DNA from: Octopus vulgaris
Lineage: Eukaryota
Reading direction: 5' to 3'
Assembly: GCA_951406725.2 (NCBI GenBank)
Contig: OX597817.1
Coordinates: 124,496,001 to 124,560,000 of the forward strand
DNA: 64,000 bases
The notes under the pieces were generated by a model. It was not told the origin of the DNA. It saw only the letters and a program-made list of their open reading frames with translations, and made no database searches. Shown here in pieces: positions 2,767-64,000 of the stretch (positions within the stretch are counted from its first letter, which is position 1; each line of letters starts with the position of its first letter). The position numbers were made by a program, and so were the translations under genes.

Positions 2767-3195
2767 TATCTCCGCCTTAACGAAGGCAGAGGTATTGCTT
2801 TTAGTCTTGTTTGTCTGTGGACTAGATATCTTAAGAACTGGTGGATGGATTCGGATGAAATTTTCAGGGATGTTTGGCCTCATGACTGACACGAACTGAT
2901 TAGATTTTGGGATCGATCTGCTACCGGACAAGGATTCTAGATTATTTTTCCGGCTTTTTACTTAAATTTTGAGAGCGGTCTGGTTCCTATAAAAGTGAGA
3001 TCAGAACTTTCTTTTGCACAAGCGATCCTTTTGGCAAAGGATTTGTCTGTTGACCTTTGCTACATTAGGATCTTCTGCACCTCACGTTGGAGTACAGTAC
3101 CCACTTTTCATCCATAGTGATTACTGACTCCAAACAATCGAATCTTCAGCTTCGCCAGAGCAAACTTTGACATGTAGTGACACGTGCTTGTTTGT
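2767..3195 (+). mobile_element. Possible Helentron-associated (DINE-1/HINE-like) non-autonomous element
   Basis: Starts with the hairpin ctccgcctt-aacg-aaggcagag followed by gtttgtctgt and ggatggattcggatgaaatttt, the usual HINE-like 5' layout. The right boundary is uncertain. Confidence 0.5.
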
Positions 3196-3204
3196 ATGTG
3201 CGTT

Positions 3205-3808
3205 AAGATTTATTTATTTATTTAATTTGTGCATTAATCATGAAACTAAATTTGTATTGACCACAGCAACTAATAAAATAGACTTCATCTATCTAGCTCG
3301 CCTTACATCATTTTCATTCCAAGGAGAAAAGTCCGTTTGTTTTTATTTTATTTTTATTTTAAAAACAACGTCCATTCAGCACATTAGAGTTCAGCTTTAG
3401 CTGCTCTTTCTCCCTCGCTTTGTTTATATACTCTTTTACTCTTTTACTTGTTTCAGTCATTTGACTGCGGCCATGCTGGAGCACCGCCTTTAGTCGAGCA
3501 AATCGACCCCGGGACTTATTCTTTGTAAGCCCAGCACTTATTCTATCAGTCTCTTTTTGCCGAACCACTAAGTGACGGGGACGTAAACACACCAGCATCG
3601 GTTGTCAAACACACACACATACATATACATATATATATATATACATATATACGACAGGCTTCTTTCAGTTTCTATCTACCAAATCCACTCACAAGGCATT
3701 GGTCGGCCCGGGGCTATAACAGAAGACACTTGTCCAAGATGCCACGCAGTGGGACTGAACCCGGAATCATGTGGTTGGTTAGCAAGCTACTTACCACACA
3801 GCCACTCC

Positions 3809-3865
<57 letters not shown>

Positions 3866-3872
3866 TCATCAT

Positions 3873-3939
<67 letters not shown>

Positions 3940-4385
3940 TAATTTGCCATTATTGGCCTAGTGACACGTTAGAAAGCGTGTTTCAATATGGATGTAAAAG
4001 TATGTTTCTTCTCCCTCTCTTACTTTTTTCAGTATACTGAATACCTTGGGTTACAAATTGATGCGTATAAATGAAGGTAAATATATTTCATAGTTATATT
4101 TTTTCCTAAAATATGGTATATGCAACTGAAGATTGGAAAATGTGCTTCTAAATTAAGTTAATTTTTTTTAAAGATTGATTTATTTAGTTTTTACATTAAT
4201 CCATTAATAGTGAAACTAGTTTTGTATTGACCACAGTAACTAATAAAATAGACTTCATCTATCTCACTCACATTACATCATTTTCATACCAAGGAGAAAA
4301 GTTCGTTTGTTTTCATTTTATTTTGATTTTAAAAACAACAGCCATTCAACACGGAGTTCAGCTTTAACTGCTCTTTCACCCTCCC
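3205..4385 (+). repeat. Diverged direct repeat of about 200 bp (3205-3415 and 4170-4385)
   Basis: Both copies read tgaaacta..tttgtattgaccacag.aactaataaaatagacttcatctatct...ccaaggagaaaagt...gagttcagcttta.ctgctcttt. Confidence 0.9.
3431..3813 (-). mobile_element. tRNA-derived SINE family A (bipartite, with internal CA/TA microsatellite)
   Basis: Head with A/B-box-like gtggctgtgtggtaag and gggttcagtccc, and tail aagtaaaagagtaaaagag; many copies in the window. Confidence 0.92.
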
Positions 4386-4434
4386 TTAGTCTATATATAT
4401 ACATATATATAATGTATCTATACATACATGTGTG

Positions 4435-4466
<32 letters not shown>

Positions 4467-5229
4467 AGTGTGTAAATATACATATATATGTATATATACA
4501 TACATATATGTATGCATACATATATACACATGTGTATGTATGTATGCATCTATCTATATGTGCATGTGTGTGTATTTATATGTACACACACATACACATA
4601 TACGCGCACACAAAACGCAGAAATAACCGGCAGTATATTAAAAGTGACAATATTAAACTAATATGTCCTATCAATCTTACTTTCCATTCTCATGTATGGA
4701 GATTTCATCTTATCAGTAATAGAAAAGACTATTATAACTAGCACTTTATTTATCTATGGAACCAAAGCGAAATATTAAAGTCTATGTTATCATTAGTTTA
4801 TATTCTTTTCACAGATCACCTAGATTAAAGACCTCAGTGTACTTTAAAATCTTTGTAGATATATTGGTATAAAAGAAGAAAAAAAAGCACTATTACATCT
4901 TCAGGTTTAATGCAGGTTTCTGGCATAGAATGTCCATGAGAATTTAGACTGATCTTACTTTTGGATATTGCACTTAAATGCTTACAAGATATTGTGTGTA
5001 GTTCTTTAGGAAGTGTCTGCAGCTATTTCTGTGATAGCATCAGTTAAACTAATGGTGAGTTCTAGATAAAAGAAGTTATTTTGAGAAATGTTATCAGAAA
5101 GCAGATTCTGTTGAAAAGCCATGATACTGGAGAGAAATTTAGCCGACATGACAGGCAAGAAAATGAACAGATTTCTATTGAGTATTGTTTAACCCAGGGT
5201 AGCTATAACCAAGTAGAAATATAACCAAA

Positions 5230-7399: not shown

Positions 7400-8280
7400 A
7401 AACATTAAAAAATTAGAAGACATTGCATCCTAAATACACACAAACTGCTAAAAGGCAAAAGACAAGACAAATCACTCAAGAGACTCCTAACAAATGCGAA
7501 ACTATACTCAATACAAACGATACCAGCAGTTAAAAAATGCAGACGACTTAATTGTGGTACATGCCCATACCTAACTGAAGGCTCAGAATTCACATTCCAC
7601 CAAGGACAAAAATTCTCAATTAAGACCAACTTCACATGTGCTTCTCAGAACCATATCTATGTCCTAACCTGTAGGCCAAACAAGCCTTACTTTGAGATGC
7701 AGAGTCACGCTGCATAAAGAACAGACTCGTTTTCCACAATACAGGCAGATAGCACTGAGCAGATATATTGACAGATGCACAAGTAATAAAACGCTGAATT
7801 TTCATATTTTCCCATTATAACAATGCAAAGATTTAATCTCAGTAGAAGAACGCCTAAACAAGGAAAACCTGTTCATACAAAGGTACAGACCGCACCTCAA
7901 TATACAGATTTGACCATTTTAAAAATTATACTAAGGAGCCAGTTGTCCCTCTTGCCACCTGTTGCTTCCCTTGTTTCATTCTCTAGATTCATTCTTCTTA
8001 TTCTTCAAACATCCAAAATGACAAGACCCCTCTGTTACAAGAACTGATTACTGTACCATGTCCCTTGCAAAACTAATTTAAATAGCGAAAACTGGTTGGA
8101 TTTCACGACATCCATATAATATGTATATATTTATAAAAAGATAATAAACTATAAGAAACGAAGGCATTTCTCTTCCACTTGTTATTTTTTTTTTTCCACA
8201 TATTTTCAACTCATAATTTCGCCACGTGGTGTATACTGAAACTTCAGTATCTTTACACCTTGTATATTTTTATATTTCTA
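7400..8280 (+). mobile_element. Penelope-like element 3' fragment (GIY-YIG endonuclease region plus pLTR)
   Basis: Translation gives KRQDKSLKRLLTNAKL, VKKCRRLNCGTCPYLTEG, TNFTCASQNHIYVLTC and KENLFIQRYRPHLN, i.e. the Cys linker and GIY-YIG of Penelope-like elements. Confidence 0.8.
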
Positions 8281-39249: not shown

Positions 39250-39935
39250 TCAGAAAACTTAATTTACGTGTTAACATGCGCAGGGTGCAATAAGCAGTAT
39301 ATAGGCCATGCAAAAAACAGCCTATGAAAAAGGATGGCAGTTCATAAATCCCAAATTAGGAATCCTGAATACAGGAAAATACCAGTCAGATAGATGTGGT
39401 TCAAATCAAAATCCCAAATTCACAACTTTCCCACTTTACAAATTCAGTGACAGCGTAACCTTCACTCAACACCAAAATAAAGAACTTTATTTTATTAGAA
39501 AATTCGGACCAAGTTTGAACACCCTGGACCAGGAACATTAAAACAATATATTGGTCTTCCGAAAAGAAAGATGGAATTCAACCACTACCACCACGATCAC
39601 TACTACTGCTGCTACTATTGCTACTACTACAACCACCATGGTCACTACTATTACTACTACGATCAACAGTCTTCCACTGCTGCTGCTACAACCAATGAGC
39701 TGCTGCAACCCCAACCACCACCACAGTTACTACTACTATAACCAACAGTCACTGCTGCTACTGCCATTTCAGCCACTGACCATTACCATAGTTTTATTCG
39801 ATCACATAAGACAGCCATTATGCTTACTCCCCACAAAAAACCGCCACGTGGATTCTGTTGAGACCAGTAAGAAATATTTATGAACTTTTTTATTACACTT
39901 AACTTTTAAAAATATTTTTGGTAAGGTTCGTTTTT
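39250..39935 (+). mobile_element. Penelope-like element 3' fragment (GIY-YIG endonuclease plus tail)
   Basis: SENLIYVLTCAGCNKQYIGHAKNSL*KRMAVHKSQIRNPEYRKIP, then FPLYKF...NKELYFIRKFGPSLN; the IY...YIG motif is explicit. Confidence 0.9.
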
Positions 39936-47245: not shown

Positions 47246-50200
47246 ATTTTCAGTAAAATTATTCAACAGACATATTAACGAAAAGTTATCATTCGATATA
47301 TTCATCAAACATTTTCTTCAAACATAGTCATCGGACATTTTCATCGAAAATTTTAGTCACATATATTCAACAAATATCAAAAATTTCAAAAAAAAGTTTT
47401 CATCAAAAATATTCACCAAATATTTTCCTGAAACATTTTCATCAAACATTTTAATCAAACATTTTCATCCAACAATTTTATCAAACATTTTCATCAAAAA
47501 TTTTCATCAAACATTTTCAACAAACACATTCAACAAACATTTTCATCAGACATTTTCATCAAACATTTACATCAAACATTTTCAACGAACATTTTCATCA
47601 AATATATTCAACAAACATCAAATATTTCAGCAAAAGTTTTCATCGAATATATTCATCAAATATTTTCCTGAAACATTTTCATTTTAATCAGACATTTTCA
47701 CTAGATATTTTCCTCAAACATTTTCATCAGACATTTTCATCAGACATTATCATCAAACATTTTCATCAAACATTTTATCAAACATACTCATCACACATTT
47801 TCATCAGACATTTTCATCAAACATTTACATCAAATATATTCAAACATTTTCGTCAAACATTTTCACCAAACATCTTCATCAAACAATTTTATCAAACATT
47901 TTCATAAGAAATTTTCATCAAACATTTTCAACAAACACATTCAAAAGACATTTTCATCAAACATTTTCATCAAACATTTACATCAAACATTTTCAACGAA
48001 CATTTTCATCAAATATATTCAACATACATCAAAAATTTCAGCAAAAGTTTTCATCAAATATTTTCCTGAAACATTTTCATTTTAATCAGACATTTTCACT
48101 AGTTATTTTCCTCAAACATTTTCATCAAACATTTTATCAAACATACTCATCAGACATTTTCATCAGACATTTTCATCAAATATATTCATCAAACATTTTC
48201 ATCAAACATTTTCATCAGACATTTTCATCAAACAATTTCATCAGACATTTTCATCAGACATTTTCATAAGACATTTTCATCAAATATTTTATCAAACGTA
48301 TTCATCAAACATTTGCATCAAACATTTTCATCAAACATTTTCATCAAACATTTACATAAAACATTTTCATAAACATTTTCATGGAATATATTCAACAAAC
48401 AACAAAAATTGCAGCAAATATTTTTAATATATTCATCAAATATTTTCCTGAAACATTTTCATCAAACATTTTCATCAGACATTTTATCAGATATTTTCAT
48501 CAAACATTTTCATCAAACATTTTCATCAGACATTTTCATCAAACATTTTCAACAAACATTTTATCAAACATACTCATCAGACATTTTCATCAGACATTTT
48601 CATAAAACATCATCAAATATTTTCATGAGATATTTTCATCAAACATTTTTGAATATTTGAAAATGTCTGATGAAAATGTTTGATGAAAAATCTCATGAAA
48701 ATGTTTGATGAAAATGTTTTAAGTAAATGTTTGATGAAAATGTTCTATGTAAATGTTTGATGAAAATGTTTGAGGAAACTGTTTGATTAAAATGATAGAT
48801 GAAAATATTTGATGAATATGTTGAAAATGTCTGATGAAAATGTTTGATGAAAAATCTCATGAAAATAATTGATGAAAATGTTTGAGGAAAATGTTTGATG
48901 AAAATGTCTGATGAAATTGCTTGATGAAAAGTTCTGATGAAAATCTCTGATGAGTATGTTTGCTAAAATATGTGATGAAAATGTTTGATGAAAATGAAAA
49001 TATTTCTGGAAAATACTTGATGAATATATTCGATGAAAACTTCTGCTGAAATTTTTATGTATGTTGAATATATTTGATGAATATATTTGTTGAATATATT
49101 CGTTGAAAATGTTTTAAGAAAACGTCAGATGAAAATGTCTGATGAAAAAGTTTGATGAAAATGTTTGATGAAAATGATTATTGAAAATGTTTGATGAAAA
49201 TGTCTGATTAAATTGTCTTATGAAAATGTTTGATGGAAATGTTTCAGGAAAATATTTGATGAAATATATCTGTTGAAAATTTTGCTGCAATTTTAGATGT
49301 TTGTTGAATATATTTCATGAAACTTTTGATGAAAATGTTTGATGAAAATGTCTGCTGAAAATGTTTCGTGAAAATGTTTGTTGAAAATGTTTGATGAAAA
49401 TGTCTGTTGAAAATGTTTGAAGAAAATGTTTAAAGAAAATGTTTAATGAAAATATTTGTTTAAAATGTTTGATGAAAATGTCTGATGAAAATGTTTGCTG
49501 AAAATATTTCATGAAAATGTCTGATTAACATGTTTGATGGAAATATTTCATGAAAATGTTTCATGAAAATGTTTCATGAAAATGTTTGTTGAAAATGTCT
49601 GATGTAAATGTCTGATGATTGTTGATGAACGTGTATGATGAAAATGTTTGATGAAAATATTTGATGCAGATGTCTGAAGAAAATATTTGATGAAAATGTT
49701 TGATGAAAATTTTTGATGAACATGTTTGATGAAAATGCATGATAAATATGTCTGATGGAAATGTCTGATGAAAATCTTAGATGAAAATGTTTGATGAACG
49801 TGTATGATGAGAATGTTTCATGAAAATGTCTGATGAAAATGTTTGTTGAATGTGTCTGATGAAAATGTCTGAAGAATATGTATGATAAAATGTTTGATGA
49901 AAATGTCTGTTAAAAATGTTTGATGAAAATGTCTGATGAAATTATTTGATGAAAATGCATGATAAATATGTCTGATGGAAATGTCGGATGAAAATCTTAG
50001 ATGAAAATGTTTGATGAACGTGTATGATGAGAATGTTTCATGAAAATGTCTGATGAAAATGTCTGAAGAATATGTATGATAAAATGTTTGATCAAAATGT
50101 TTGATGAAATTGTTCGTTGAAAATGTTTGATGAAAATGTCTGATGAAATTTTCTGATGAAAATGTTTGATGGAAATGTCTGATGAATATGTTTGATAAAA

Positions 50201-53200
50201 TGTATAATGAAGATGTTTTATGAAAATGTCTGATGAAAATGTCTGATGAAAATGTTTGATAAAAATATTTGATGAACGTGTGTGATGAAAATGTTTGATG
50301 AAAACGTTTTGTGAAAATGTCTGATGAAAATTTCTGATGTAAATAATTGATGAAAATATCTGATTAACATGTTTGATGAAAATGCTTGATAATATCTGAT
50401 GGAAATGTCGGATGAAAATCTTAGACGAAAATGTTTGATGAACGTGTATGATGAAACTATTTTATGAAATGTCTGATGAAAATGTTTCATGAAGATGTCT
50501 GATGAATATGAATTATAAAATGTTTGATGAAAATGTTTGATGAAAATGTATGAAGAAAATGTTTTAGGAAAATGCCTAATGAAAATTTCTGATGAAAATG
50601 TCTGATGAAAATGTATGAAGAAAATGTTTGATGTAAATATTGAGGAGAATATCTAGTGAAATTGTCTGATGAAAATGAAAAGTTTTCAAGAAAATATTTG
50701 ATGAATATATCCGATGAAAACTTTTGCCCAAAAGTTTGATGTATGTTGAATTTATTTAATGAAAATATTCGTTGAAAATGTTTGATTAAAATGTTTGATG
50801 AAAATGTTTGATGGAAACGTATGGTGAAAATGTCTGATGAAAATGTTTAATGAAAATGTCTCATGAAAAAATTTGATGAAAATGTTTGATGAAAATGTCT
50901 AATGAAAATGTTTGCTGATAATGTTTGATGAAAATGTCTGATGTTTGAATAAAATATTTGATGAAAATCTTTCATGAAAATGTTTTATGAAAATGTTTGT
51001 TGAAAATGTCTGATGTAAATGTCTGATGAGAATCTTGGATGAAAATGTTTGATGAACGTGTGTGATGAAAATGTTTGATGAAAATGTCTCTTGCAAATGT
51101 TTGATGAAAATGTATGATGAAAATGTTTGATCAAAATATTTGATGAATATGTTTCATGAAAATGATTAATGAAAATGTTTGGTGAAAATGTCTGATGAAA
51201 ATGTTTCTTGAAAAAATTTGATGAAAATGTCTGATGAAAATGTCTGACGAATATGTATAATAAAATGTGTGATGAAAATGTTTGATGAAAACGTCTGATG
51301 AAAATGTCTGTTGAAGATGTTTGATGAAAATGTTAGATGAAAATGTCTGATGAAAATGTTTGAAAAAATATTTGATAAAAATGTCTGATGAAAATGTGTA
51401 ATGAAAATGTTTGATGAAAATGTTTGTTGAAAATGTTTGAAGAAAGTGTCTAAGGAAATGTTTGATGAAAATGATGATAATGTCTGATGAAAATTTCTGA
51501 TGTAAATGTTTGATAAAAATATCTGATTAACATGTATGATGAAAATGTTTGATGATAATGTCTGATGGAAATGTCAGATGACAATCCTAGATGTGAATGT
51601 TTGATGAACCTGTATGATGAAAATGTTTGATGAATATGTCTCATGAAAATGTTTGTTGAAAAAGTTTGATGAAAATGTTTGATGAAAATGTCTGATGAAA
51701 ATATCCGATTAACATGTTTGATTGAAATGCTAGAGTATAATGTATGATGGAAATGACTGATGAAAATCTTAGATGAAAATGTTTGAATACAATGTCTGAT
51801 GAAAATGTTTGTTGAATGTGTTTGATGAAAATGTCTGATGAATATGTATGATAAAATGTTTGATGAAAATGTTTGATGAAAATGTTTTATCAAAATGTCC
51901 GATGAAAATGTTTGATGAAATTGTTTGATGAAAATGCCTGATGAAAATGTTTTATCAAAATGTTTGATGAAAATATTTGATGAACGTGTATGATGAAGAT
52001 GCTTGATGATAATGTCTGATGGAAAGGTCTGATGAAAATCTTAGATGAAAATTTTTGATGAACGTATATGATGAAGATATTTTATGAAAATGTCTGATGA
52101 AAATGTTTGTTGAAAATGTTTCATGAAAATGTCTGATGAAAATGTTTGATGAAAATGTCTGATGAAAATGTATGATAAAATGTTTGATGAAAATGTCTAA
52201 TGAATATTTCTGATGAAAATGTTTGATGAAAATGTTTGAGGAAAATGTCTAGTGAAATTGTTTGATGAAAATGAAAATGTTTCATGAAAATATTTGATGA
52301 ATATATTCGATGAAAACTTTTGCCGAAAATTTTGATGTATGTTGAATTTATTTAATGAAAGTGTTCGTTGAAAAGGTTTGATGAAAATGTTTGATTCAAA
52401 CGTATTGTGAAAATGACTGATGAAAATGTTTAAAGAATATGTCTCATGAAAAAATTTGATGAAAAGGCCTAATCAAAATGTTTGCTGAAAATGTCTGATT
52501 AAAATGTTTGAATAAAATATATGAAAATCTTTCATGAAAATGTTTCATGAAAATGTTTGATGAAAATGTCTGATGTAAATGTCAGATGAGAATCTTGGAA
52601 TGTTTGATGAACGTGTGTGATGAAAATGTTTGATGAAAATGTCTCATGCAAATGTCTGCAGAAAATGTATGATGAAAATGTTTGATCAAAATATTTGATG
52701 AATATGTTTGATGAAAATGATTGATGAAAATGTTTGGTGAAAATGTCTGATGAAAATTTCAGATGTAAATGTTTGAGGAAAATATATGATTAACATGTTT
52801 GATGAAAATACTTGATGATAATGTCTGATCGAAATGTCTGATGAAAATCAAAGATGAAAATGTTTGATGAACGTGTATGATGAGAATGTTTTACGAAAAT
52901 GTCTGATGTAATTGTTTGTTGAAAATTTGTAATGAAAATGTCTGATGAAAATGTCTGACGAATATGTATGATAAAATGTTAGATGAATATGTCTGATGAA
53001 TGTTTGAAAAAATATTTGATGAAAATGTCTGATGAAAATGTCTGATGAAAATGTTTGATGAAAATGTTTGATGAAAATGTCTGATGAAATTGTTTGATGA
53101 AAATGTTTGAGGTAATTATTTTATGAAAATGATTAATGAAAATGTTTGAAGAAAATGTTTGAAGAAAATATTTGAGGAAAATGTGTAGTGAAATTTTCTA

Positions 53201-56200
53201 ATGAAAATGAAAAGGGTTCACGAATATATTCGATGAAAACATATGCCGAAAATCATGATAAATGTTAAATTTATTTGATGAAAATGTTCGTTGAAAATGT
53301 TTAATAAAAATGTTTCATGAAAACGTATGGTGAAAAATGTCTGCTGAAAATGTTTAATGAAAATGTCTCATGAAAAAATTTGATGAAAATGTTTGATGAA
53401 AATTTCTAATGAAAATGTTTGCTGATAATGTTTGATGAAAATGTCTGATGTTTGAATAAAATATTTGATGAAACTGTTTCATGAAAATGTTTCATGAAAA
53501 TGTTTGTTGAAAATGTCTGATGTAAATGTCTGATGAGAATCTTGGATGAAAATGTTCGATAAACGTGTGTGATGAAAATGTTTGATGAAAATGTCTGAGG
53601 CAAATGTCTGAAGAAAATGTATGTTGAAAATTTCTGATGTAAATGTTTGATGAAAATATCTGATTAACTTGTATGATGAAAATGTCTGATGAAAATGTCT
53701 GATGAAAATGTTTGTTGAAAATGTTTGATGAAAATGTTTGATTAAAGTGTCTGATGAAAATGTCTGATGAAAATGTCTGATGAAAATACCTGATTAACAT
53801 GTTTGATTAAAATGCTTGATGATAATGTCTGATGGAAATGTTTAATAAAATGTGTGATGAAAATGTCTAATGGAAATTTCTGATGAAAATGTCTTGTGAA
53901 AATGTTTGAGGAAACTGTCTAGCGAAATTGTCTGATGAAATTGAAAATGTTTCACAAAAATATTTGATGAATATATTAGATGAAAACATTTGCTGAAAAT
54001 TTTGATGTATGTTGAATTTATTTGATGAAAATTTTCGTTGGAAATGTTTCATGAAAATGTTTCATGAAAATGTTTGTTGAAACTGTCTGATGAGAATCTT
54101 GGATGAAAATGTTTGATGAACGTGTGTGATGAAAATGTTTGATGAAAATGTCTGATGCAAACGTCTGAAGAAATTGTCTGATGAAAATGTCTGATGAAAA
54201 TGTGTGTTGAAATTGTTTGAACAAAATATTTGATGAAAATGTTTGATGAAAATGTTTGTTAAAATTGTTTGATATTTGATGTTTGATGAAAATGTCTGAT
54301 GAAATTGTTTGATGAAAATGTTTGATGAAAATGTCTAATGAAATTGTTTGATGAAAATGTCTGATGAAAATGTTTGATGAAAATATCTGATGAAAACGTC
54401 TGGTGAATATGTTTGATAAAATGTCTGATGAAAATATCTGATGAAAGCGTCTGATGAAATTGTTTGATGAAAATGTCTGATGAAAATGTTTGATGAAAAT
54501 GTCTGATGAACTTGTTTGATGAAATTCTTTGATTAAATTGTTTGATAATTTCTGATTAAAATGTTTGAATAAAATATTTGGTGAAAATCTTTCATGAAAA
54601 TGTTTTATTAAAATGTTTGTTGAAAATGTCTGAATCTTGGATGAAAATTTTTGAGGAACGTGTGTGATGAAAATGTTTGATGAAAATGTCTGAGGCAAAT
54701 GTCTCAAGAAAATGTATGATGAAAATTTCTGATGTAAATATTTGATGAAAATATCTGATTAACATGTATGATGAAAATGTTTGATGAAAATGTTTGATTA
54801 AAGTGTCTGATTAAAATGTCTGATGAAAATAACTGATTAACATGTTTGATTAAAATGCTTGATGATAATGTCTGATGGAAATGTTTAATAAAATGTGTGA
54901 TGAAAATGTCTAAGGGAAATTTCTGATGAAAATGACTGGTGAAAATGTTTGAGAAAAATATCTAGCGAAATTGTCTGATGAAATTGAAAATGTTTCACAT
55001 AAATATTTGATGAATATATTCGATGAAAACATTTGCCGAAAATTTTGATGTATGTTGAATTTATTTGATGAAAATGTTCGTTGAAAATGTTTGATGAAAA
55101 TGATTTATGAAAATGTTTGTTGAAAATGTCTGATGAGAATCTTGGATGAAAATGTTTGAAGAACGTATGTGATGAAAATGTTTGATGAAAATGTCTGATG
55201 TAAACGTCTGAAGAAAATGTCTGATGAAAATGTCTCATGAAAATGTGCGATGAAATTGTTTGAACAAAATATTTGATGAAAATGTTTGATGAAATTGTTT
55301 GTTGAAATTGTTTGATATTTGATGTTTGATGAAAATGTCTGATGAAATTGTTTGATGAAAATGTCTAATGAAATTGATGATGAAAATGTCTGATGAAAAT
55401 GTTTGGTGAAAATATCTGATGAAAACGTCTGGTGAATATGTTTGATAAAATGTTTGATGAAAATATCTGATGAAAACGTCTGGTGAATATGTTTGATGAA
55501 AATGTCTGATGAAAATGTTTGATGAAAATGTCTGATGAACATGTTTGATGAAATTCTTTGATTAAATTGTTTGATAATTTCTGATTAAAATATTTGATGA
55601 AAATTTTACATGAAAATGTTTTATGAAAATGTTTGTTGAAAATGTCTGAATCTTGGATGAAAATGTTTGATGAACGTGTGTGATGAAAATGTTTGATGAA
55701 AATGTCTGCTGAAATTGTTTGATGAAAATGTCTGAAGAAATTGATAAAAATGTCTGATGAAAATGTCTGATGAAATTGTTTGTTGAAAATGTTTGATGAA
55801 AATGTCTGATGAAATTGTTTCATGAAAATGTTTGATGAAAATGTCTGATGTTTGATTAAATTGTTTGATGATGTCTGATTAAAATGTTTGAATAAAATAT
55901 TTGATGAAGATCTTTCATGAAAATGTTTCATGAAAATGTTTGTGGAACATGTCTCATGTAAATGTCTGCTGAGAATCTTGGATGAAAATGTTTGATGAAC
56001 GTGTGTGATGAAAATGTTTGATGAAATTGTTTGATGAAAATGTTTGGTGTTTGATTTTTGATGAAAATGTCTGATGAAAATGTTTGATGAAATTGTTTGT
56101 TGAAATTGTTTGATGATGTCTGATTAAAATGTTTGAATAAAATATTTGATGAAAATCTTTCATGAAAATGTTTCAGGAAAATGTTTGTTGAAAATGTCTG

Positions 56201-56865
56201 ATAAGAATCTTGGATGAAAATGTTTGATGAACGTGTGTGATGAAAATGTTTGATGAAAATGTCTGAGGCAAATGTCTGAAGAAAATTTTTGATGAATATG
56301 TTTGATGAAAATGATTGATGAAAATGTTTGTTGAAAATGTCTGATGAAAATTTCTGATGTAAATGTTTGATGAAAATATCTGATTAACATGTTTGATGAA
56401 AATGTCTGATGAAAATACCTGAGTAACATGTTTGATTAAAATGTTTGATGATAATGTCTGATGGAAATGTTTAATAAAATGTGTGATGAAAATGTCTAAT
56501 GGAAATTTCTGATGCAAATGTCTGGTGAAAATGTCTCTTGCAAATGTTTGGAGAAAATGTATGATGAAAATGTTTGATCAAAATTATTGATGAATATGTT
56601 TGATGAAAATGTCAGATGAAATTGTTTGATTAAATTGTTTGATGATGTCTGATTAAAATGTTTGAATAAAATATTTGATGAAGATCTTTCATGAAAATAA
56701 TAGTTATCGCCATACTAATATGGCATTCTTATAAAAATAAGAATAAAGCTGTCTGCTTATTAGCTCCATGAGGCCATCGCCTTAAGTTAGCTATTTGATA
56801 CACAAACTGTATCCGTATAACCTTCGAATAAGGGAGGTCAGTCGCTCCACACTACTTGACCGACA

Positions 56866-56907
56866 GCTACAGATGCGTTTCGGGGTATTGCCCCTTTTCA
56901 ATGTAGT
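56866..56907 (-). ncRNA. Hammerhead ribozyme copy 1 (U3:A8)
   Basis: CUACA UUGAAAA GGGG-CAAUA-CCCC GAAA CGCA UC / UGUAG: perfect helix II and one mismatch in helix III. Confidence 0.75.
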
Positions 56908-57227
56908 GTAGTCAGACCAGTAGGTGTCGCTTCTGACAATCTCTGTTCGAAGGTTTTATTTACCTAGTTTCGGTGGAATACATCCACTTGTTTTCAATAA
57001 TAGAGATATTAAAATTACTAAGTCTCTCTAAAAGAGAACACGGCAGCGTTCCCGGAAAATAATAGTTATCGCCATACTAATATGGCATTCTAATAAAAAT
57101 AAGAATAAAGCTGTCCGCTTATTAGCTCCATGAGGCCATCGCCTTAAGTTAGCTATTTGATACACAAACTGTATCCATATGACCTTCGAACAAGGGAGGT
57201 CAGTCGCTCCACACTACTTGACCGACA

Positions 57228-57270
57228 GCTACAGACGCTGTTTCGGGGTATTGCTCCTTTTCAATGTAGC
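57228..57270 (-). ncRNA. Hammerhead ribozyme copy 2 (U3:A8)
   Basis: GCUACA UUGAAAA GGAG-CAAUA-CCCC GAAA CAGCG UC / UGUAGC, with a 1-nt insertion in helix III. Confidence 0.72.
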
Positions 57271-57590
57271 GTAGTCAGACCAGTAGGTGTCACTTCTGAC
57301 AATCTCTGTTCGAAGGTTTTATTTACCTAGTTTCGGTGGAATACATCCACTTGTTTTCAATAATAGAGATATTAAAATTACTAAGTCTCTCTAAAAGAGA
57401 ACACGGCAGCGTTCCCGGAAAATAATAGTTATCGCCATACTAATATGGCATTCTAATAAAAATAAGAATAAAGCTGTCCGCTTATTAGCTCCATGAGGCC
57501 ATCGCCTTAAGTTAGCTATTTGATACACAAACTGTATTCATATGACCTTCGAACAAGGGAGGTCAGTCGCTCCACACTACTTGACCGACA

Positions 57591-57632
57591 GCTACAGACG
57601 CGTTTCGGGGTATTGCTCCTTTTCAATGTAGC
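57591..57632 (-). ncRNA. Hammerhead ribozyme copy 3 (U3:A8)
   Basis: GCUACA UUGAAAA GGAG-CAAUA-CCCC GAAA CGCG UC / UGUAGC, with palindromic helix III ACGCGU and a GUC site. Confidence 0.8.
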
Positions 57633-60600
57633 GTAGTCAGACCAGTAGGTGTCACTTCTGACAATCTCTGTTCGAAGGTTTTATTTACCTAGTTTCGGTG
57701 GAATACATACACGTGTTTTCTTGTAGCTGTCGGTCAAGTAGTGTGGAGCGACTGACCTAGTATTTTCCGGGAACGCTGCAGTGTTCTCTTTTACAGAGAC
57801 TTAGTAATTTTAATATTTCTATTATTTCATGAAAATGTTTCATGAAAATGTTTGTGGAACATGTCTCATGTAAATGTCTGCAGAGAATCTTGGATGAAAA
57901 TGTTTGATGAACGTGTGTGATGAAAATGTTTGATGAAAATGTCTGATGAAACTATTTGATGAATATGTCTGATGAAAATGTCTGATGAAAATGTTTGGTG
58001 TTTGATTTTTGATGAAAATGTCTGATGAAAATGTTTGATGAAATTGTTTGATGAAATTGTTTGATTAATGTCTGATTAAAATGTTTGAATAAAATATTTG
58101 ATGAAAATCTTTCATGAAAATGTTTCATGAAAATGTTTGTTGAAAATGTCTGATGTAAATGTCTGAGAATCTTGGATGAAAATGTTTGATGAACGTGTGA
58201 GATGAAAATGTTTAATGAAAACGTCTGATGCAAATGTCTGATGAAAATGTATGATGAAAATATTTGATCAAAATTGTTGATGAATATATTTGATGAAAAT
58301 GATTGATGAAAATGTTTGGTGAAAATGTCTGATGAAAATTTCTGATGTAAATGTTTGATGAAATTATGTGATTAAGATGTTTGATGAAAATACTTGATGA
58401 TAATGTCTGATGGAAATGTCTGATGAAAATCTTAGATGAAAATGTTTGATGAACGTGTATGATGAAAATGATTTATGAAAATGTCTGATGAAAATGTTTG
58501 TTGAAAATGTTTGATGAAAATGTCTGATGAAAATGTTTCTTGAAAACGTTTGATGAAAACGTCTGATGAAAATTTGTGATGAAAATGTTTGATGAAAATG
58601 TTTCATGAAAATGTCTGATGAAAATATTTGATGAAGATGTTTGATGAAAATGTTTGTTAAAAATGTTTGTTGAAATTGTTTGAGGAAATTGTTTGAGGAA
58701 AATGCTTGATGTAAATGTCTGAGGGAAATGTCTGATGAAAATCTTAGATTGAAATGTTTGATGAACGTGTATGATGAAAATATTTGATCAAAATTTTTGA
58801 TGAATATGTTTGATGAAAATGATTGATGAAAATGTTTGTTGAAAATGTCTGATGAAAATTTCTGATGTAAATGTTTGATGAAAATATCTGATTAACATGT
58901 TTGATGAAAATGCTTGATGATAATGTCTGATGAAAATCTCAGATGTCTGATGAAATTGTTTGCTGAAAATGTTTGATGGAAATGTTTGATGAAAATGTCT
59001 GATGTAATTGTTTGATGAAAATGTCTGATGAAAATGTATGATAGAATGTTTGATGAAAAGGTTTGGTGAAAATGTCTGATGAACATGTTTGATAAAATGA
59101 TTGATGAAAATGTTCGTTGAAAATGTTTTACGAAAATGTTCAAGGTAATTCCTTGATGAAAATTTTGATGAAAATATCTGATTGACATGTTTGATGAAAA
59201 TGTCTGATGTTAATATTTGATGTTTGATGTTTGATGAAAATGTCTGATGAAATTGTTTGATGAAAATGTTTGATGAAAATGTTTGATGAAAATGTCTGAT
59301 GAATATGTTTCATAAAATGTTTGATGAAAATGTTTGTTGAAAATATTTTATGAAAATGTTCGAGGAAATTCTTTGATGAAAATGTCTGATGAAATTGTTT
59401 GATGAAAATGTCTGATGTTAATATTTGATGTTTGATGTTTGATGAAAATGTCTGATGAAAATGTTTGATGAAAATGTTTGATGATGAATATGTTTGATGA
59501 AAATGTCTGATGAAATCGTTTGATGAAAATGTTTGATGAAAATGTTTGAAAATGTCGGATGAATATGTTTGATGAAAATGTGATGATGAAAATGTTTGAA
59601 AATGTCGGATGAATATGTTTGATAAAATGTCTGATGAAAATGTTTGATGAACACGTTTGATGAATTTGTCTGATGAAATTGTTTGATAGAAATTTCTTAT
59701 GAAAATGTCTGATGTAAATGTTTGAGTTTTGATGTTTCATGAAAATGTCTGATGTAATTGTTTGATGAAAATGTTTGATGAAATGTCTGATGAAATTGTT
59801 TGATGAAAATGTCTGGTGAAAATTTCTGATGAAAATGTGTGATGAATATGTTTGATTAAATGTCTCATGAAAATGTCTACTGAAGATGTTTGATGAAATT
59901 GTTTGATGAAAATGTCTGATGAAAATGTCTGATGAAAATGTTTGATGTTTGATGTTTAATGAAAATATGTGATGAAATTGTTTGATCATAATAATGTTTG
60001 CTGAAATTGTTTGATATTTGAAGTTTGATGAAAATGTCTGATGAAATTGTTTGATGAAAATATTTGAAGAAAATTTCTGATGAAATTGTTTAATGAAAAT
60101 GTCTAAAGAAAATGTCTCATGAAAATGTTTGATTAAAATGTCTGATGAATATATCTGATGAAAATTTCTGATGAAATTGTTTGATGAACATGTCTGATGA
60201 AAATGTTTGATGAAAATGTCGGATGAAAATGTTTAATGAAAATGTCTGATGTAATTGTTTGATGAAATTGTTTGATGATGTCTAATGAAAATGTTTGATG
60301 AAAATGTTTGATGGAAATCTTAGATGAAAATCTTAGATGAAAATGTTTGATGAACGTGTATGATGAAAATGTTTTATGAAAATGTCTCATGAAAATGTTC
60401 GTTGAAAACGTTTGATAAAATGTTTGATGAAAATGTTTGTTGAAAATGTTTTATGAAAATATTTGAGGAAATTCTTTGATGAAAATGTTTGATGAAAATA
60501 TCTGATTAACATGTTTGATGGAAATGCTTGATGATGACTGATGTCAATCTTAGATGAGAACATCTGATGAAAGTGTATGATGAAAATATCTGATGAAAAT

Positions 60601-63600
60601 GTCTTATGAAAATGTTTGATGAAAATGTTTGATGATGAAAACGTTTGATGAAAATGTCTGATGAAATTGTTTGATGAAAATGTCTGATGAAATTGTTTGA
60701 TGAAAATGTTTGATTAAAATGTTTGAAAATGTCAGATGAAAATGTCTGAGGAAAACGTTTGATGAATATGTCTCATTAGACATATTCATCAAACGTTTGA
60801 TAAAATGTCTGATGAAAATGTCTGATGTAAATGTTTGAGGTTTGATGTTTGATGAAAATGTCTGATGAAATTGTTTGATGAAAGTGTTTGATGAAAATGT
60901 CTGTTGAAATTGTTTGATGAAAATGTCTGGTGAAAATGTCTGATGAAAATGTCCGATGAATATGTTTGATAAAATGTCTGATGAAAAGGTCTAATGAAGA
61001 TGTCTGATGAAATTGATGAAAATGTCTGATGAAAATGGTTGATGTTTGATGTTTAATGAAAATGTCTGATGAATTTGTTTGATCATAATATTTGATGGAA
61101 ATGTTTGATGAAAATATTTGCAGAAATTGTTTGATGTTCGATGTTTGATGAAAATGTCTGATGAAATTGTTTGATGAAAATGTCTGATGAATATATCTGA
61201 TGAAAATGTCTGATGAATCTGTTTGATAAAATGTCTGATGAAAATGTTTCATGTTTGAAGTTTGATGAAAATTTCTGATGAAATTGTTTGATGAAAATGT
61301 CTGATGAAAATGTTTGATGAAAATGTTTGATGAAAATGTTTGATGAAATTGTTTGATGTCTAATGAAAATGTTTGATGAAAATGTCTGATGGAAATGTCT
61401 TCTGAATATCTTAGATGAAAATGTTTGATGAACTTGTATGATGAAAATGTTTTAAGAAAATATCTTATGAAAATGTTCGTTGAAAATGTTTGATGAATAT
61501 GTCCGATGAAAATATCTGATGAAAATGTTTGCTGAAAATATTTGATGAAAATGTTTGATTAAAATGTTTGATTAAAATATTTGATGAAAATGTTTGATGA
61601 AAATGTCTGATGAAAATGCCTGATGAATATGTATGATAAAATGTTTGATGAAAATGTTTGATGAAAATGTCTGATGAAAATGTTTCATGAAAATGTTTCA
61701 TGAAAATGTCTGATGAATATGTTTGATAAAATGTTTGTTGAAAATGTTTGAGCAAATTGTTTGATGAAAATGTTTGATGAAAAATGTCTGATGGAAATGT
61801 CTGCTGAAAATCTCTGATGAAAATGTCTGATGAATATGTATGGTAAAATGTTTGATGAAAATTTTTGATCAAAATGTCTGATCTAAATATTTGATGAAAA
61901 TATCTAATTAAAATATCTAAATTTTCATCAAACATTTTCATCATCAAACATTTTCATCAAACATTTTCATCAGTTATTTTCTAATGGAAATGTCTGATGA
62001 AAATCTTAGATGAAAATGTTTGATGAACGTGTATGATGTTTGAAAATGTCTGATGAAAATGTCTGATGAAAATGTCAGATGAATATGTATGATCAAATGT
62101 TTTATGGATATGTATGATAAAATGTTTGATGAAAATGTTTAATGAAAACGTCTGATGAAAATGTCTGGGGAAAATATTTGATAAAAATGTCTGATGAATA
62201 CGTTTGATAAAATATTTGATGAAAATGTTTAATGAAAATATCTGATGAAAATGTATGTTGAAAATGTTTGTTGAAAATGTTTGAGGAAATTGTTTGATGA
62301 AAATGTCTGATGATTATGTCTGATGGAAATGTCTGATGAAAATGTCTGATGAAAATGTCTGATGAATATGTATGATAAAATGTTTGATGAAAATGTTTGA
62401 TCAAAATGTCTGATGTAAATGTTTGATGAAAATATCTAATTAAAATGTCTGATGAAAATGCTTGATGATAATGTCTGATGGAAATGTCTGATGAAAATCT
62501 TAGATGAAAATGTTTGATGAACGTGTATGATGTTTGAAAATGTTTGAAAATGTTTGTTGAAAATGTTTGATGAAAATGTCTGATGAAAATGTCTGATGAA
62601 AATGTCAGATGAATATGTATGATAAAATGTTTTATAGATATGTATGATAAAATGTTTGATGAAAATGTTTAATGAAAACGTCTGTTGAAAATGTCTGGTG
62701 AAAATATTTGATAAGCATGTCTGATGAATACGTTTGATAAAATATTTGATGAAAATGTCTTATGAAAATCTCTGATGAAAATGTGTGATGAATATGTTTG
62801 ATAAAATGTTTGATGAAAATGTTTGGTGAAAATGTATAATTAACATATTTTATTAAAATGCTTTCATCAAACATTTTCATCAAAACTTTCATGAAATATA
62901 TTCAACAAACATCAAAAATATCAGCAAATATTTATTACATATATATTCATCAAATATATTCCTCCAACATTTTGATTAAACATTTTCATCAAACATTTTC
63001 AACAAACATTTTCATAAAACATTTTCATCAAACATTTCCATCAGACATTTTCATCTGACGTTTTTATCAAAAAAATTTCACCATACACGTTCATGGATCA
63101 TTTTCATCAGACAGATTCCTCAATCATTTTCATCAAACATATTTCTTGAACATTTAAGTCAAACATTTTCAAAAATTTTCATTAAACATTTTGTCAAACA
63201 TTTTCATCAAACAGTTTAATCAGACATTTCCATCAAACATTTTCATCCGACATTTTCATCAAACATTTTTATGAAACACTTTCTTCATACATATTCAACA
63301 AACATTTTCATCAATCATTTTCATCAGACGATTTTTATGAAACATTTTCATCAAACATTTCCATCAAACATATTCATCAAATGTTTTTTATTAAACAATA
63401 TTATGAGACATTTTCATCAAACATTTTCCTCAAACATTTTCATATATCTTTTTTATAAATCATTTTCATGAAACACTTTCATGAAATATTCTCATCAGAC
63501 ATTTTCATCCTACATTTTCATCTCAGATTTTCATTACAGATTCCCATCAAACATTTTCATCAAGCATTTTCTGACATTTTCATCAGATATTTTTATCAAA

Positions 63601-64000
63601 CACTTTCCTCGTACATGTTCATCAAACATTTTCATCTAAGATTTTCACCAGAAATTTTCATCAAATATTTTCATAAAACATTTTCAACAAGCTTCATCAT
63701 CAGACATGTTTTTCAAGCATTTTCATCAATCATTTTCATTAGACAGTTTAATCCAATATTTTCATGAAATATTTTCAAATATTTTCATCAAAAAATTTCA
63801 TCAGACATTTTCATCAAACATTTTCATCTGACATTTTCATCAGACATTTTCATCAAACATTTTTATCAAACTTATTCATCAGACATTTTCATCAGACAAT
63901 TTTTGTCGAACAATTTCCTCAAACATTTCCATCAAATATTTTCATCAAATATATTTAATAAACATTGTCATCAGACATTTTGATGAAACATTTTCATCAA

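Follow-up and report, generated by a model that had tools for sequence, protein, structure and literature searches.

A tandem U3:A8 hammerhead retrozyme of Octopus vulgaris, its Penelope-type insertion ends and a LINE that enters it at one site

What kind of element is the short tandem array that lies inside a satellite of Octopus vulgaris, and how could a non-coding unit of 362 bp be expressed and moved? The array is found in a 64,000-nucleotide stretch of DNA (GenBank assembly GCA_951406725.2, contig OX597817.1, positions 124,496,001 to 124,560,000, forward strand), called the window here and numbered from its first base. An initial annotation had described it, at 56699..57824, as head-to-tail copies of a self-cleaving, retrozyme-like unit that could be mobilised in trans by a Penelope-like element (PLE). 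We have followed this up with a computational analysis of the 2.8-Gb assembly, in which the window is on contig 4. Statements on published work refer to the parts of the cited sources that were accessible. The reading that we arrive at, and hold with fairly high confidence, is that of a non-coding retrozyme with a U3:A8 hammerhead, which would be transcribed from a promoter of the small nuclear RNA (snRNA) type, cleave itself as a dimer, be copied in trans by PLE enzymes and be entered at a single site by a Tx1-like long interspersed element (LINE). The likely internal promoter and the site-specific LINE had both been missed. For the family as a whole, covariation, copy number, PLE-type ends and the lack of an adjoining PLE open reading frame (ORF) make it likely that the unit is indeed a dimer-cleaving retrozyme moved in trans by a PLE.

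The unit and its hammerhead

A self-BLAST of the region gives 362/363-bp units, head-to-tail and 96-98% identical, over about 56699-57720, and no further unit copies elsewhere in the window. This main arm (56699..57720, minus strand) holds about 2.8 units. If unit position 1 is set to the first base past the predicted cut, its 3' end at 56699 lies at unit ~176, the 'short' one of two fixed ends that recur in the family. The array had been proposed to run on to 57824, which does not hold: the 103 bp at 57722..57824 (plus strand) are not tandem and consist of unit 1-37 joined to unit 170-238. Read from its 3' end, which is at the 'long' fixed end (unit ~238), this inverted arm goes back to 170 and then continues with unit 37-1; it is a PLE-type 5' inversion with a 62-nt tail. 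A 12-bp target site duplication had also been overlooked, with its left copy in the satellite at 56687..56698 and its right copy at 57825..57836 (both plus strand). Compared with a similar empty satellite stretch near 55906-55948, the duplication word is present in one copy more; since the satellite itself repeats that word, the duplication alone is weaker evidence than it appears. The element contains no ORF of at least 70 amino acids, as all 11 of the listed ORFs are in the satellite or extend only 16 bp into the element, and the unit is thus non-coding, as had been stated.

All three units in the window carry a type I hammerhead on the minus strand, with cores that begin at 57626, 57264 and 56901. 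The cuts are predicted at 57597/57596, 57234/57233 and 56872/56871, which gives monomers of 363 and 362 nt; our recalculated positions and lengths are identical to those put forward before. Each hammerhead has a lesion and none equals the family-typical ribozyme. Copy 3 (57587..57638) has the U3:A8 core, an intact palindrome and a helix II mismatch, copy 2 (57224..57276) has a helix II mismatch and a 1-nt insertion in the palindrome, and in copy 1 (56862..56913) helix II is intact, the palindrome is broken and helix I is changed. The helix II mismatch of two of the copies leaves a hairpin of -0.1 kcal/mol, compared to -5.3 kcal/mol, and the mixed palindrome duplexes of the window copies are also weaker (-4.8/-4.9 vs -7.5 kcal/mol). 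Furthermore, the units at this locus differ by 2.8%, against an average of 1.1% within loci. Because of these lesions, the weaker duplexes and the higher divergence, we regard the window locus as older than the average copy and probably impaired. The copy would thus probably cleave poorly, and the release of monomers from this particular locus, which had been expected, is doubtful.

The family is a different matter from the locus. Genome-wide, the pattern of helix I plus core has 2,074 exact matches, and two other exact motif patterns have 1,570 and 1,809; the reversed control gives 0 in each case, and the three counts are lower bounds on the number of units. Subfamily B, also 362 bp, is ~83% identical to subfamily A, to which the window copy belongs. 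Family C, which is more distant, has a 363-bp unit that is colinear with A and B, with 164 of 373 columns invariant across the three, and its copies (L235:2970-3332, L192, L198 and L202) have a U4-to-C core variant. Family D has its end layout in common with the unit family; its copies (L204, L209, L260, L267 and L293) have cores that are either U3 with G8 or A8, or canonical.

In a set of 157 hammerheads selected by pattern, in which overlapping loci were de-duplicated only in part, there is no variation at U3 and A8, N7 can be A, U or C, and the helix III palindrome is perfect in 143. Among the 18 distinct variants, 95.3% of the cells pair, and 5 of the 19 pairs change on both sides (one in the outer stem, two in helix I, one in helix II and one at the palindrome centre). 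The covariation score is reached by none of 500 shuffles, and slid controls pair only 27-50%. Circular monomers are predicted to fold with z-scores of -5.4 to -7.7 and 60-65% of the bases paired (seven monomers, 30 shuffles each). Assembled contigs from four sequencing runs of uncertain RNA origin cover all 28 unit bins and span the head-to-tail joint; these cannot separate a circle from tandem DNA, or RNA from DNA.

It is important to point out that the U3:A8 core, proposed as a compensatory variant and fixed in this set, is itself already published. Hammerheads of this type occur in nature and are active in vitro (Perreault 2011, PMC3088659), and ~1,300 U3:A8 matches have been reported among the PLE-type hammerheads of Schistosoma mansoni (Cervera 2014, PMC4209133). 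There, the same compensatory core pair is found mostly in single PLE-type motifs; in the octopus genome it is shared by the cores of a tandem retrozyme family and a young autonomous PLE. The description of the ribozyme as a minimal hammerhead has to be given up. The minimal form is defined by a long helix II (7-8 bp) and a short helix I (4-5 bp) (PMC4209133), while the family hammerhead has a helix I of 6 bp plus an outer stem, a helix II of 4 bp and a short palindromic helix III. By those definitions it is a canonical-size type I hammerhead and not the minimal PLE form.

Insertion ends and Penelope-like elements

To see how the copies were inserted, we took a census of 174 arms at 92 loci, namely the best matches for the unit plus contig-1 loci ordered by position; duplicates, one LINE-bearing locus and one locus with a run of N were left out. 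The 3' ends of the arms fall at two sites ~62 nt apart in 145 cases, with 70 at unit 168-184 and 75 at unit 226-240. Among the 66 two-armed loci, 46 combine a short and a long end, two are short-short, one is long-long and 17 have one end elsewhere. Arms of up to five units are found, and these run through the cleavage site. The flanks are mostly (TA)n, and at four loci with targets other than (TA)n (L018, L030, L089 and L100) duplications of 7-12 bp, similar to that of the window, were found by eye. The copies thus show partial tandems, an inverted 5' arm, a tail defined by two starts and an AT-rich or microsatellite target. The hallmarks of PLEs include partial tandem copies, a 5' copy in inverted orientation, a tail on one side and a bias towards microsatellites (Craig et al., bioRxiv 2021.04.23.441226), and in the Anolis PLE the tail corresponds to the sequence that separates two internal starts of the reverse transcriptase (RT) (Frangieh et al., PMC11167929).

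The 5' ends have a truncation hot spot at unit 36-50, with 31 of the 174 arms vs ~7 expected. This interval (about 57184-57198 in the window) coincides with the base of a long predicted rod that extends helix I (57181..57319, minus strand), where unit ~278-293 is paired with ~37-53, and we infer that the hot spot arises from stalling or trimming at an RNA structure. Units differ by 1.1% within loci and by 2.9% between loci; locus-private variants, which could mark single circles as templates, are too few to decide.

A young intact PLE is present in the same genome (L061, G000:C9:2168500-2175500). It has a 4,617-nt monomer and a 753-amino-acid RT-GIY-YIG ORF (2799-5057), and its family is very young, with copies mostly 98-100% identical. 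The layout is the same as that of the unit, with two ends 51 nt apart, a (TA)n target and its own U3:A8 hammerhead in the pseudo-long terminal repeat (pLTR). An unannotated 367-codon ORF (1286-2386) lies upstream of the 753-codon one. A second young PLE family (L160-L162; G000:C10:97.80-97.82 Mb and C16:15.98 Mb) has a GC-rich ORF, a 6.2-kb tandem period and a 3' region that is long and CA-rich and contains a GC-rich hairpin; a motif scan of it detects no hammerhead. The two GIY-YIG fragments that had been noted in the window at 7.4 and 39.3 kb are real PLE sequence, namely remnants of the endonuclease at 7409-7900 and 39305-39538, but they are old and broken and have no DNA similarity to the unit. 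The first of them is ~69-71% identical to the young 753-amino-acid PLE family over the linker/GIY-YIG part.

Does the unit itself belong to a PLE? No PLE ORF runs into the unit at the best-match loci, the position-ordered contig-1 loci or 20 further loci chosen for lacking the exact downstream 23-mer, which are the likeliest to run into other sequence, and none of these loci has an RT-GIY-YIG ORF between pLTRs. The unit is therefore read as non-autonomous. It has a hammerhead in each tandem unit, a non-coding, multi-copy unit in the range of 150-450 bp, a duplication longer than 4 bp and a monomer that is predicted to pair with itself, and it is a non-coding, non-LTR (long terminal repeat) retrozyme, that is, a known kind of element.

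Another option considered was that the unit is the pLTR of an unsampled autonomous PLE, the copies being 5'-truncated remnants of it. Its end architecture is that of PLEs, Xenopus retrozymes resemble pLTRs (bioRxiv 10.64898/2026.07.22.740005), the searches scored the best 40-150 candidates, and one locus has a short PLE ORF fragment abutting the unit. This option is nevertheless improbable, since the 362-bp unit forms a closed cycle, of which as many as five copies follow one another, the homologous 363-bp unit of family C has the same layout, and the sole coding DNA inside the unit, among the contig-1 ordered loci and the 20 chosen loci, is an ORF1-only LINE. The unit is thus not a pLTR remnant at the loci examined.

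The abutting fragment (L124:756-1794) joins the retrozyme directly on both sides, as a mirror image, and may have arisen by a template switch, in which case it would point to the mobilising PLE. Fragments of PLEs that lie next to the unit at four other loci (L043, L112, L148 and L180) were discarded as they are not joined to it, with (TA)n or other DNA in between, and a 24-nt match at L071 is weak and attributed to chance. Same-strand pairs of units that are kilobases apart were likewise rejected as single elements; they are separate insertions or a segmental duplicate.

A site-specific LINE and a predicted promoter

At one of the 20 chosen loci (L165) a gag-like ORF was found inside the unit, and this led to the search that revealed the LINE. 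The ORF belongs to ORF1-only elements with a CCHC knuckle and no RT, which are comparable to the ORF1-only elements known as 'half-L1'. In a strict scan, 15 of 29 ORF1-only 3' ends have a hammerhead within 140 nt, vs 6 of 2,000 background stretches, and in 14 of these 15 the core starts 29-37 nt from the 3' end. Inspection by eye of the 14 ends missed by the scan places 12 at retrozyme sites as well, and two not. For one ORF1-only lineage, insertions are seen at an identical offset in A/B, C, D and further hammerhead families, and the other sub-lineages do not target retrozymes. The ORF1-only protein, for which a word-index search gives no homologue, has 325 unnamed relatives (HMMER), and Atlas points to CCHC/ZCCHC3-like RNA-binding clusters.

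An ORF2 beside one ORF1-only copy gave access to the autonomous relatives. The LINE that targets subfamily A is 5,387 bp long, young and intact, with an ORF1 frame of 515 codons (zf-CCHC) and an ORF2 of 1,140 codons (Exo_endo_phos, RVT_1 and zf-RVT, that is, an APE-RT-zf order). The nearest solved structure for ORF2 is L1 ORF2p, with an E-value of 2e-66 vs 1e-24 for R2, and for a LINE protein the nearest named relative is from Argonauta hians, at 63% identity, the other homologs being unnamed. Judged from its sequence, the LINE is putatively Tx1-like.

The 30 LINE loci divide by target into 12 in subfamily A (two of them nested at the LINE's own duplication), 10 in family D, one in family C, four in U2, two elsewhere and one that is 3'-truncated. 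The four U2 loci end at the first U2 base, as confirmed with Rfam for both that were tested. Full-length copies of the A-targeting LINE are flanked by a duplication of ~17 bp, which lies 34-36 nt upstream of the hammerhead core. Exact LINE 3' ends are followed by the unit site in 21 of 28 cases genome-wide, in 16 loci, where one repeat type in >20% of the flanks has been used to define target specificity (PMC4494074); of the other seven, one is located precisely where a U1 gene begins, at its first base. In a midpoint-rooted tree, without outgroup, of 32 natural ORF2 stretches, all 13 of the A-targeting copies form one clade (support 0.975), the U1 copy is on a sister branch and the U2- and D-targeting copies are intermixed. 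In the window copy, which is LINE-free, the target sites are empty; the one at 57281..57297 (minus strand) corresponds to the ~17 bp duplicated in LINE-bearing copies and is also the predicted transcription start, and its equivalents are at 56918-56934 and 57643-57659.

The insertions are at least partly independent: the copy at L331 has lost its 5' part and has a duplication to itself, contig 2 holds a set of five nested copies, and several host unit variants are involved. At two loci the LINE and the inverted arm are combined: the inverted arm of L341 contains the LINE 3' end, and at L343 a truncated LINE abuts the inverted arm. This suggests that LINE-bearing unit RNA can be re-copied in the PLE manner. 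A host variant common to LINE-bearing copies had seemed to indicate amplification as a composite; it was dropped as it is frequent in LINE-free loci too, so that the support for re-copying is limited to these two loci.

We have also considered the case where LINE plus unit form one autonomous element, with the LINE RT mobilising the unit, as the full-length composites do resemble an ORF pair flanked by unit repeats. The counts and the insertion ends speak against it. The LINE is found in only ~1% of the units (21 ends vs 2,074 cores), and LINE-free copies lack the LINE 3' end and have two internal starts, inversions and (TA)n targets, while the LINE itself has a fixed 3' end and 14-17-bp duplications. 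We therefore consider the scenario very improbable.

Several related insertions were seen in the course of this work. Those at +1 of U2 (L264, L266, L269, L357 and L376) and at U1 (L326/L346) comprise Tx1-like LINEs and one ORF1-only element. An abundant sister LINE with a 1,148-codon ORF2 forms head-to-tail arrays with a 5,277-bp period (L295, G000:C5:29192500-29202000). ORF1-only elements are nested five to seven deep at one site (L243-L245, L247, L259 and L262), and such nested sites (e.g. G000:C4:27.05-27.07 Mb and C4:70.04-70.05 Mb) are in a repeat with CCAAT- and TATA-like boxes or at the 5' end of related LINEs. Several insertions of other ORF1-only sub-lineages lie ~30 nt behind TATA-like boxes (by eye, uncounted), and at ten loci no known RNA family was found at the targets of these sub-lineages.

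Since sister LINEs insert at +1 of U1 and U2, the unit site was tested as a transcription start. Full-length U1, U2, U4 and U5 genes have a common motif 54-59 nt upstream of +1, and a profile of this proximal sequence element (PSE), trained only on 16 U1/U2/U4/U5 promoters of this genome, recovers 12 of them in leave-one-family-out tests. In the window unit the top site scores 12.8, the best of 724 positions, and the background reaches at least 12 once in 30,000. With the LINE site taken as +1, the top site is at -56 to -59 in six of eight retrozyme tests, namely those of the window unit, of A, B and C, of an old copy of the A/B type and of one D copy out of three; the profile fails on the PLE-like target and on the young PLE. 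When A, B and C are compared, the part around the PSE-like element is one of the best conserved. On the minus strand of the window, the top-scoring element is that of copy 2 (57320..57357), copy 1 has a matching one (56957..56994), and that of copy 3 (57704-57719) is damaged beside the inversion junction. It is thus likely, as a prediction from sequence, that the unit carries an internal snRNA-type promoter, and the LINE site is likely its transcription start because it is the first base of the gene that sister lineages enter in U1 and U2. A precedent is newt satellite 2, with an internal snRNA-type Pol II promoter (Coats, Zhang & Epstein 1994, as cited in PMC2220036).

How the LINE finds this site is less clear. 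One explanation is that its endonuclease reads out the sequence alone, the start-site location or PSE match being incidental. Target choice in the Tx1 clade has been ascribed to the endonuclease (PMC4494074), and each LINE clade stays with similar-looking sites. Near-identical ORF2 DNA is found at U2 +1 and in family D, whose sites share the first four bases and the end, and because such like sites are struck by near-identical LINEs we put this explanation at about even odds. It does not readily account for the fact that the A/B, C, D, U1 and U2 sites differ widely and are mostly at equal distance from the PSE-like element, nor for the one ORF1-only lineage whose offset stays constant through A/B, C, D and further hammerhead families.

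A more tentative proposal, which we would place somewhat below even odds, is that of parasites in three tiers, where a promoter-capturing retrozyme lives on PLE enzymes and the LINE, having switched from U1/U2, homes to an snRNA-type +1 with the transcription machinery, and not the sequence alone, as its guide. If this were true, the LINE would acquire an upstream promoter, a 3' end cut by the ribozyme and, through the PLE, an additional way to spread.

Proposed mechanism, known systems and setting

Put together, our preferred reading of a promoter-bearing retrozyme copied by a PLE would proceed as follows. Pol II would initiate at unit ~300, which is ~57 nt downstream from the PSE-like element, and read through the tandem. 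Two hammerheads would then pair via the palindromic helix III and cut to give 362-nt monomers, which may circularise. Next, RT starts at unit ~176 on one target strand and at ~238 on the other; these positions are observed in the DNA, and the enzyme would be that of a PLE. The cDNAs extend past the cleavage site to take in additional units, and the two are linked in inverted orientation where the target is (TA)n or AT-rich. The predicted +1 is where the intact LINE and its ORF1-only derivatives are inserted, with a duplication of 14-17 bp. Lastly, judging from two loci, a LINE-bearing unit may be re-copied via the PLE route.

A number of observations count against this scheme. All three window hammerheads are damaged, and Rfam scans with E up to 10 detect no hammerhead in the element. 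Relatedness is not taken into account in the covariation shuffle, whose rows were picked by the core pattern. The PSE profile misses four of the 16 promoters in the leave-one-family-out tests, its site is not the best in two of three family-D tests (second in one, failed in the other), and the promoter anchor was chosen after both the promoter and the retrozyme sets had been seen. Over the 174 arms, 5' truncations do not pile up at the predicted +1, and with 7 seen against 8.7 expected they are not in excess at the cleavage site either. The seven of 28 LINE ends that are not at the unit are diverged sisters, 74-96% identical. No similarity to the unit was found in the 753-amino-acid PLE, the 6.2-kb PLE or one old PLE family, other families not having been enumerated. 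In addition, eight of nine Xenopus retrozyme dimers were uncleaved in vitro (Li, Clavereau & Pollet, bioRxiv 10.64898/2026.07.22.740005), and the Anolis PLE hammerhead required protein and was dispensable for insertion in vitro (PMC11167929).

Some of these points would be explained if the hammerhead were weak or assisted by protein and no circle were formed, linear multimers being the template of the PLE and the fold being kept for another role, such as end trimming or binding of the PLE protein. The missing excess of 5' ends at the cleavage site and the Xenopus and Anolis precedents fit with this, and the homogeneity within loci (1.1% vs 2.9%) suits multimers as well as circles. On the other hand, the core is invariant and the palindrome is compensated across subfamilies that are 83% identical, the helix sizes are canonical, as in the active coral and mussel retrozymes (PMC7229834), and arms of up to five units cross the cleavage site, as rolling-circle copying would produce. 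We consider a weak hammerhead rather unlikely, and it would in any case be compatible with the rest of the preferred scheme.

The unit can be compared with several known systems. Like the metazoan non-LTR retrozymes (Cervera & de la Pena 2020, PMC7229834; bioRxiv 10.64898/2026.07.22.740005), it is a non-coding tandem of 150-450 bp (350-390 in mussel) with a canonical-size type I hammerhead, a weak palindromic helix III, a long target duplication, a self-paired predicted circle and PLEs alongside. It differs from those described by the U3:A8 core, the short partial tandems, the inverted arms, the two-site tail, the likely internal PSE and the dedicated LINE. A word search of the accessible text of these two sources finds no mention of a tail or of octopus and no relevant use of 'inverted', and in that of the bioRxiv one there is no mention of Tx1, promoter or snRNA. 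With the PLEs of the Neptune/Poseidon type (bioRxiv 2021.04.23.441226; PMC11167929) the unit has in common the partial tandems, the inverted 5'-truncated copy, the optional tail, microsatellite or AT-rich targets and a hammerhead upstream of the RT starts; unlike them, it has no RT-GIY-YIG ORF, a tail of ~62 nt instead of 30-40, and a canonical rather than minimal hammerhead. Newt satellite 2 (as cited in PMC2220036) is likewise a hammerhead tandem repeat with an snRNA-type Pol II promoter, whereas the promoter here is a prediction only.

Tx1-clade LINEs are known to target U2 and mobile elements, as in Keno (U2), Tx1L (Tx1D), Tx1-Mar and Kibi/Koshi (PMC4494074, PMC4640811). The octopus LINE resembles them in its APE-RT-zinc ORF2, its CCHC ORF1, the use of one site in a multicopy repeat, the nested tandem copies around the duplication and the switching of the lineage between snRNA genes and mobile elements. 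What sets it apart is that its target is a hammerhead retrozyme, that the site appears to be a transcription start, given the insertions of sister lineages at +1 of U1 and U2, and that composites are apparently re-copied by PLE machinery. In the literature searched, with Repbase and subscription journals outside its scope, there is no report of a LINE that targets hammerhead retrozymes or of a PLE tail on retrozymes. Nor is there a prior report of this octopus retrozyme family, which Repbase, subscription journals or bioRxiv supplements may hold.

For the movement of animal retrozymes, PLEs have so far been candidates by co-occurrence and pLTR similarity (PMC7229834; bioRxiv 10.64898/2026.07.22.740005). 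In the present case the two-site tail that is specific to PLEs is seen on the retrozyme insertions themselves. It pins down two exact positions for the RT start, which are open to a test with purified PLE protein, and the genome itself offers a young intact PLE. If the predicted promoter is real, the precedent of newt satellite 2 would reach to a genome of the mollusc type, and it would be explained how a 362-bp unit could express itself. Sister LINEs that strike different sequences at one promoter-relative position constitute a natural experiment on target choice and switching by APE-type LINEs, and the LINE is possibly an analogue of transcription-factor-guided integration.

Finally, as for the setting of the element in the window, the satellite into which it is inserted occupies 47301..64000 and has a 13-bp period, and its orientation reverses near 48650 and 62860.

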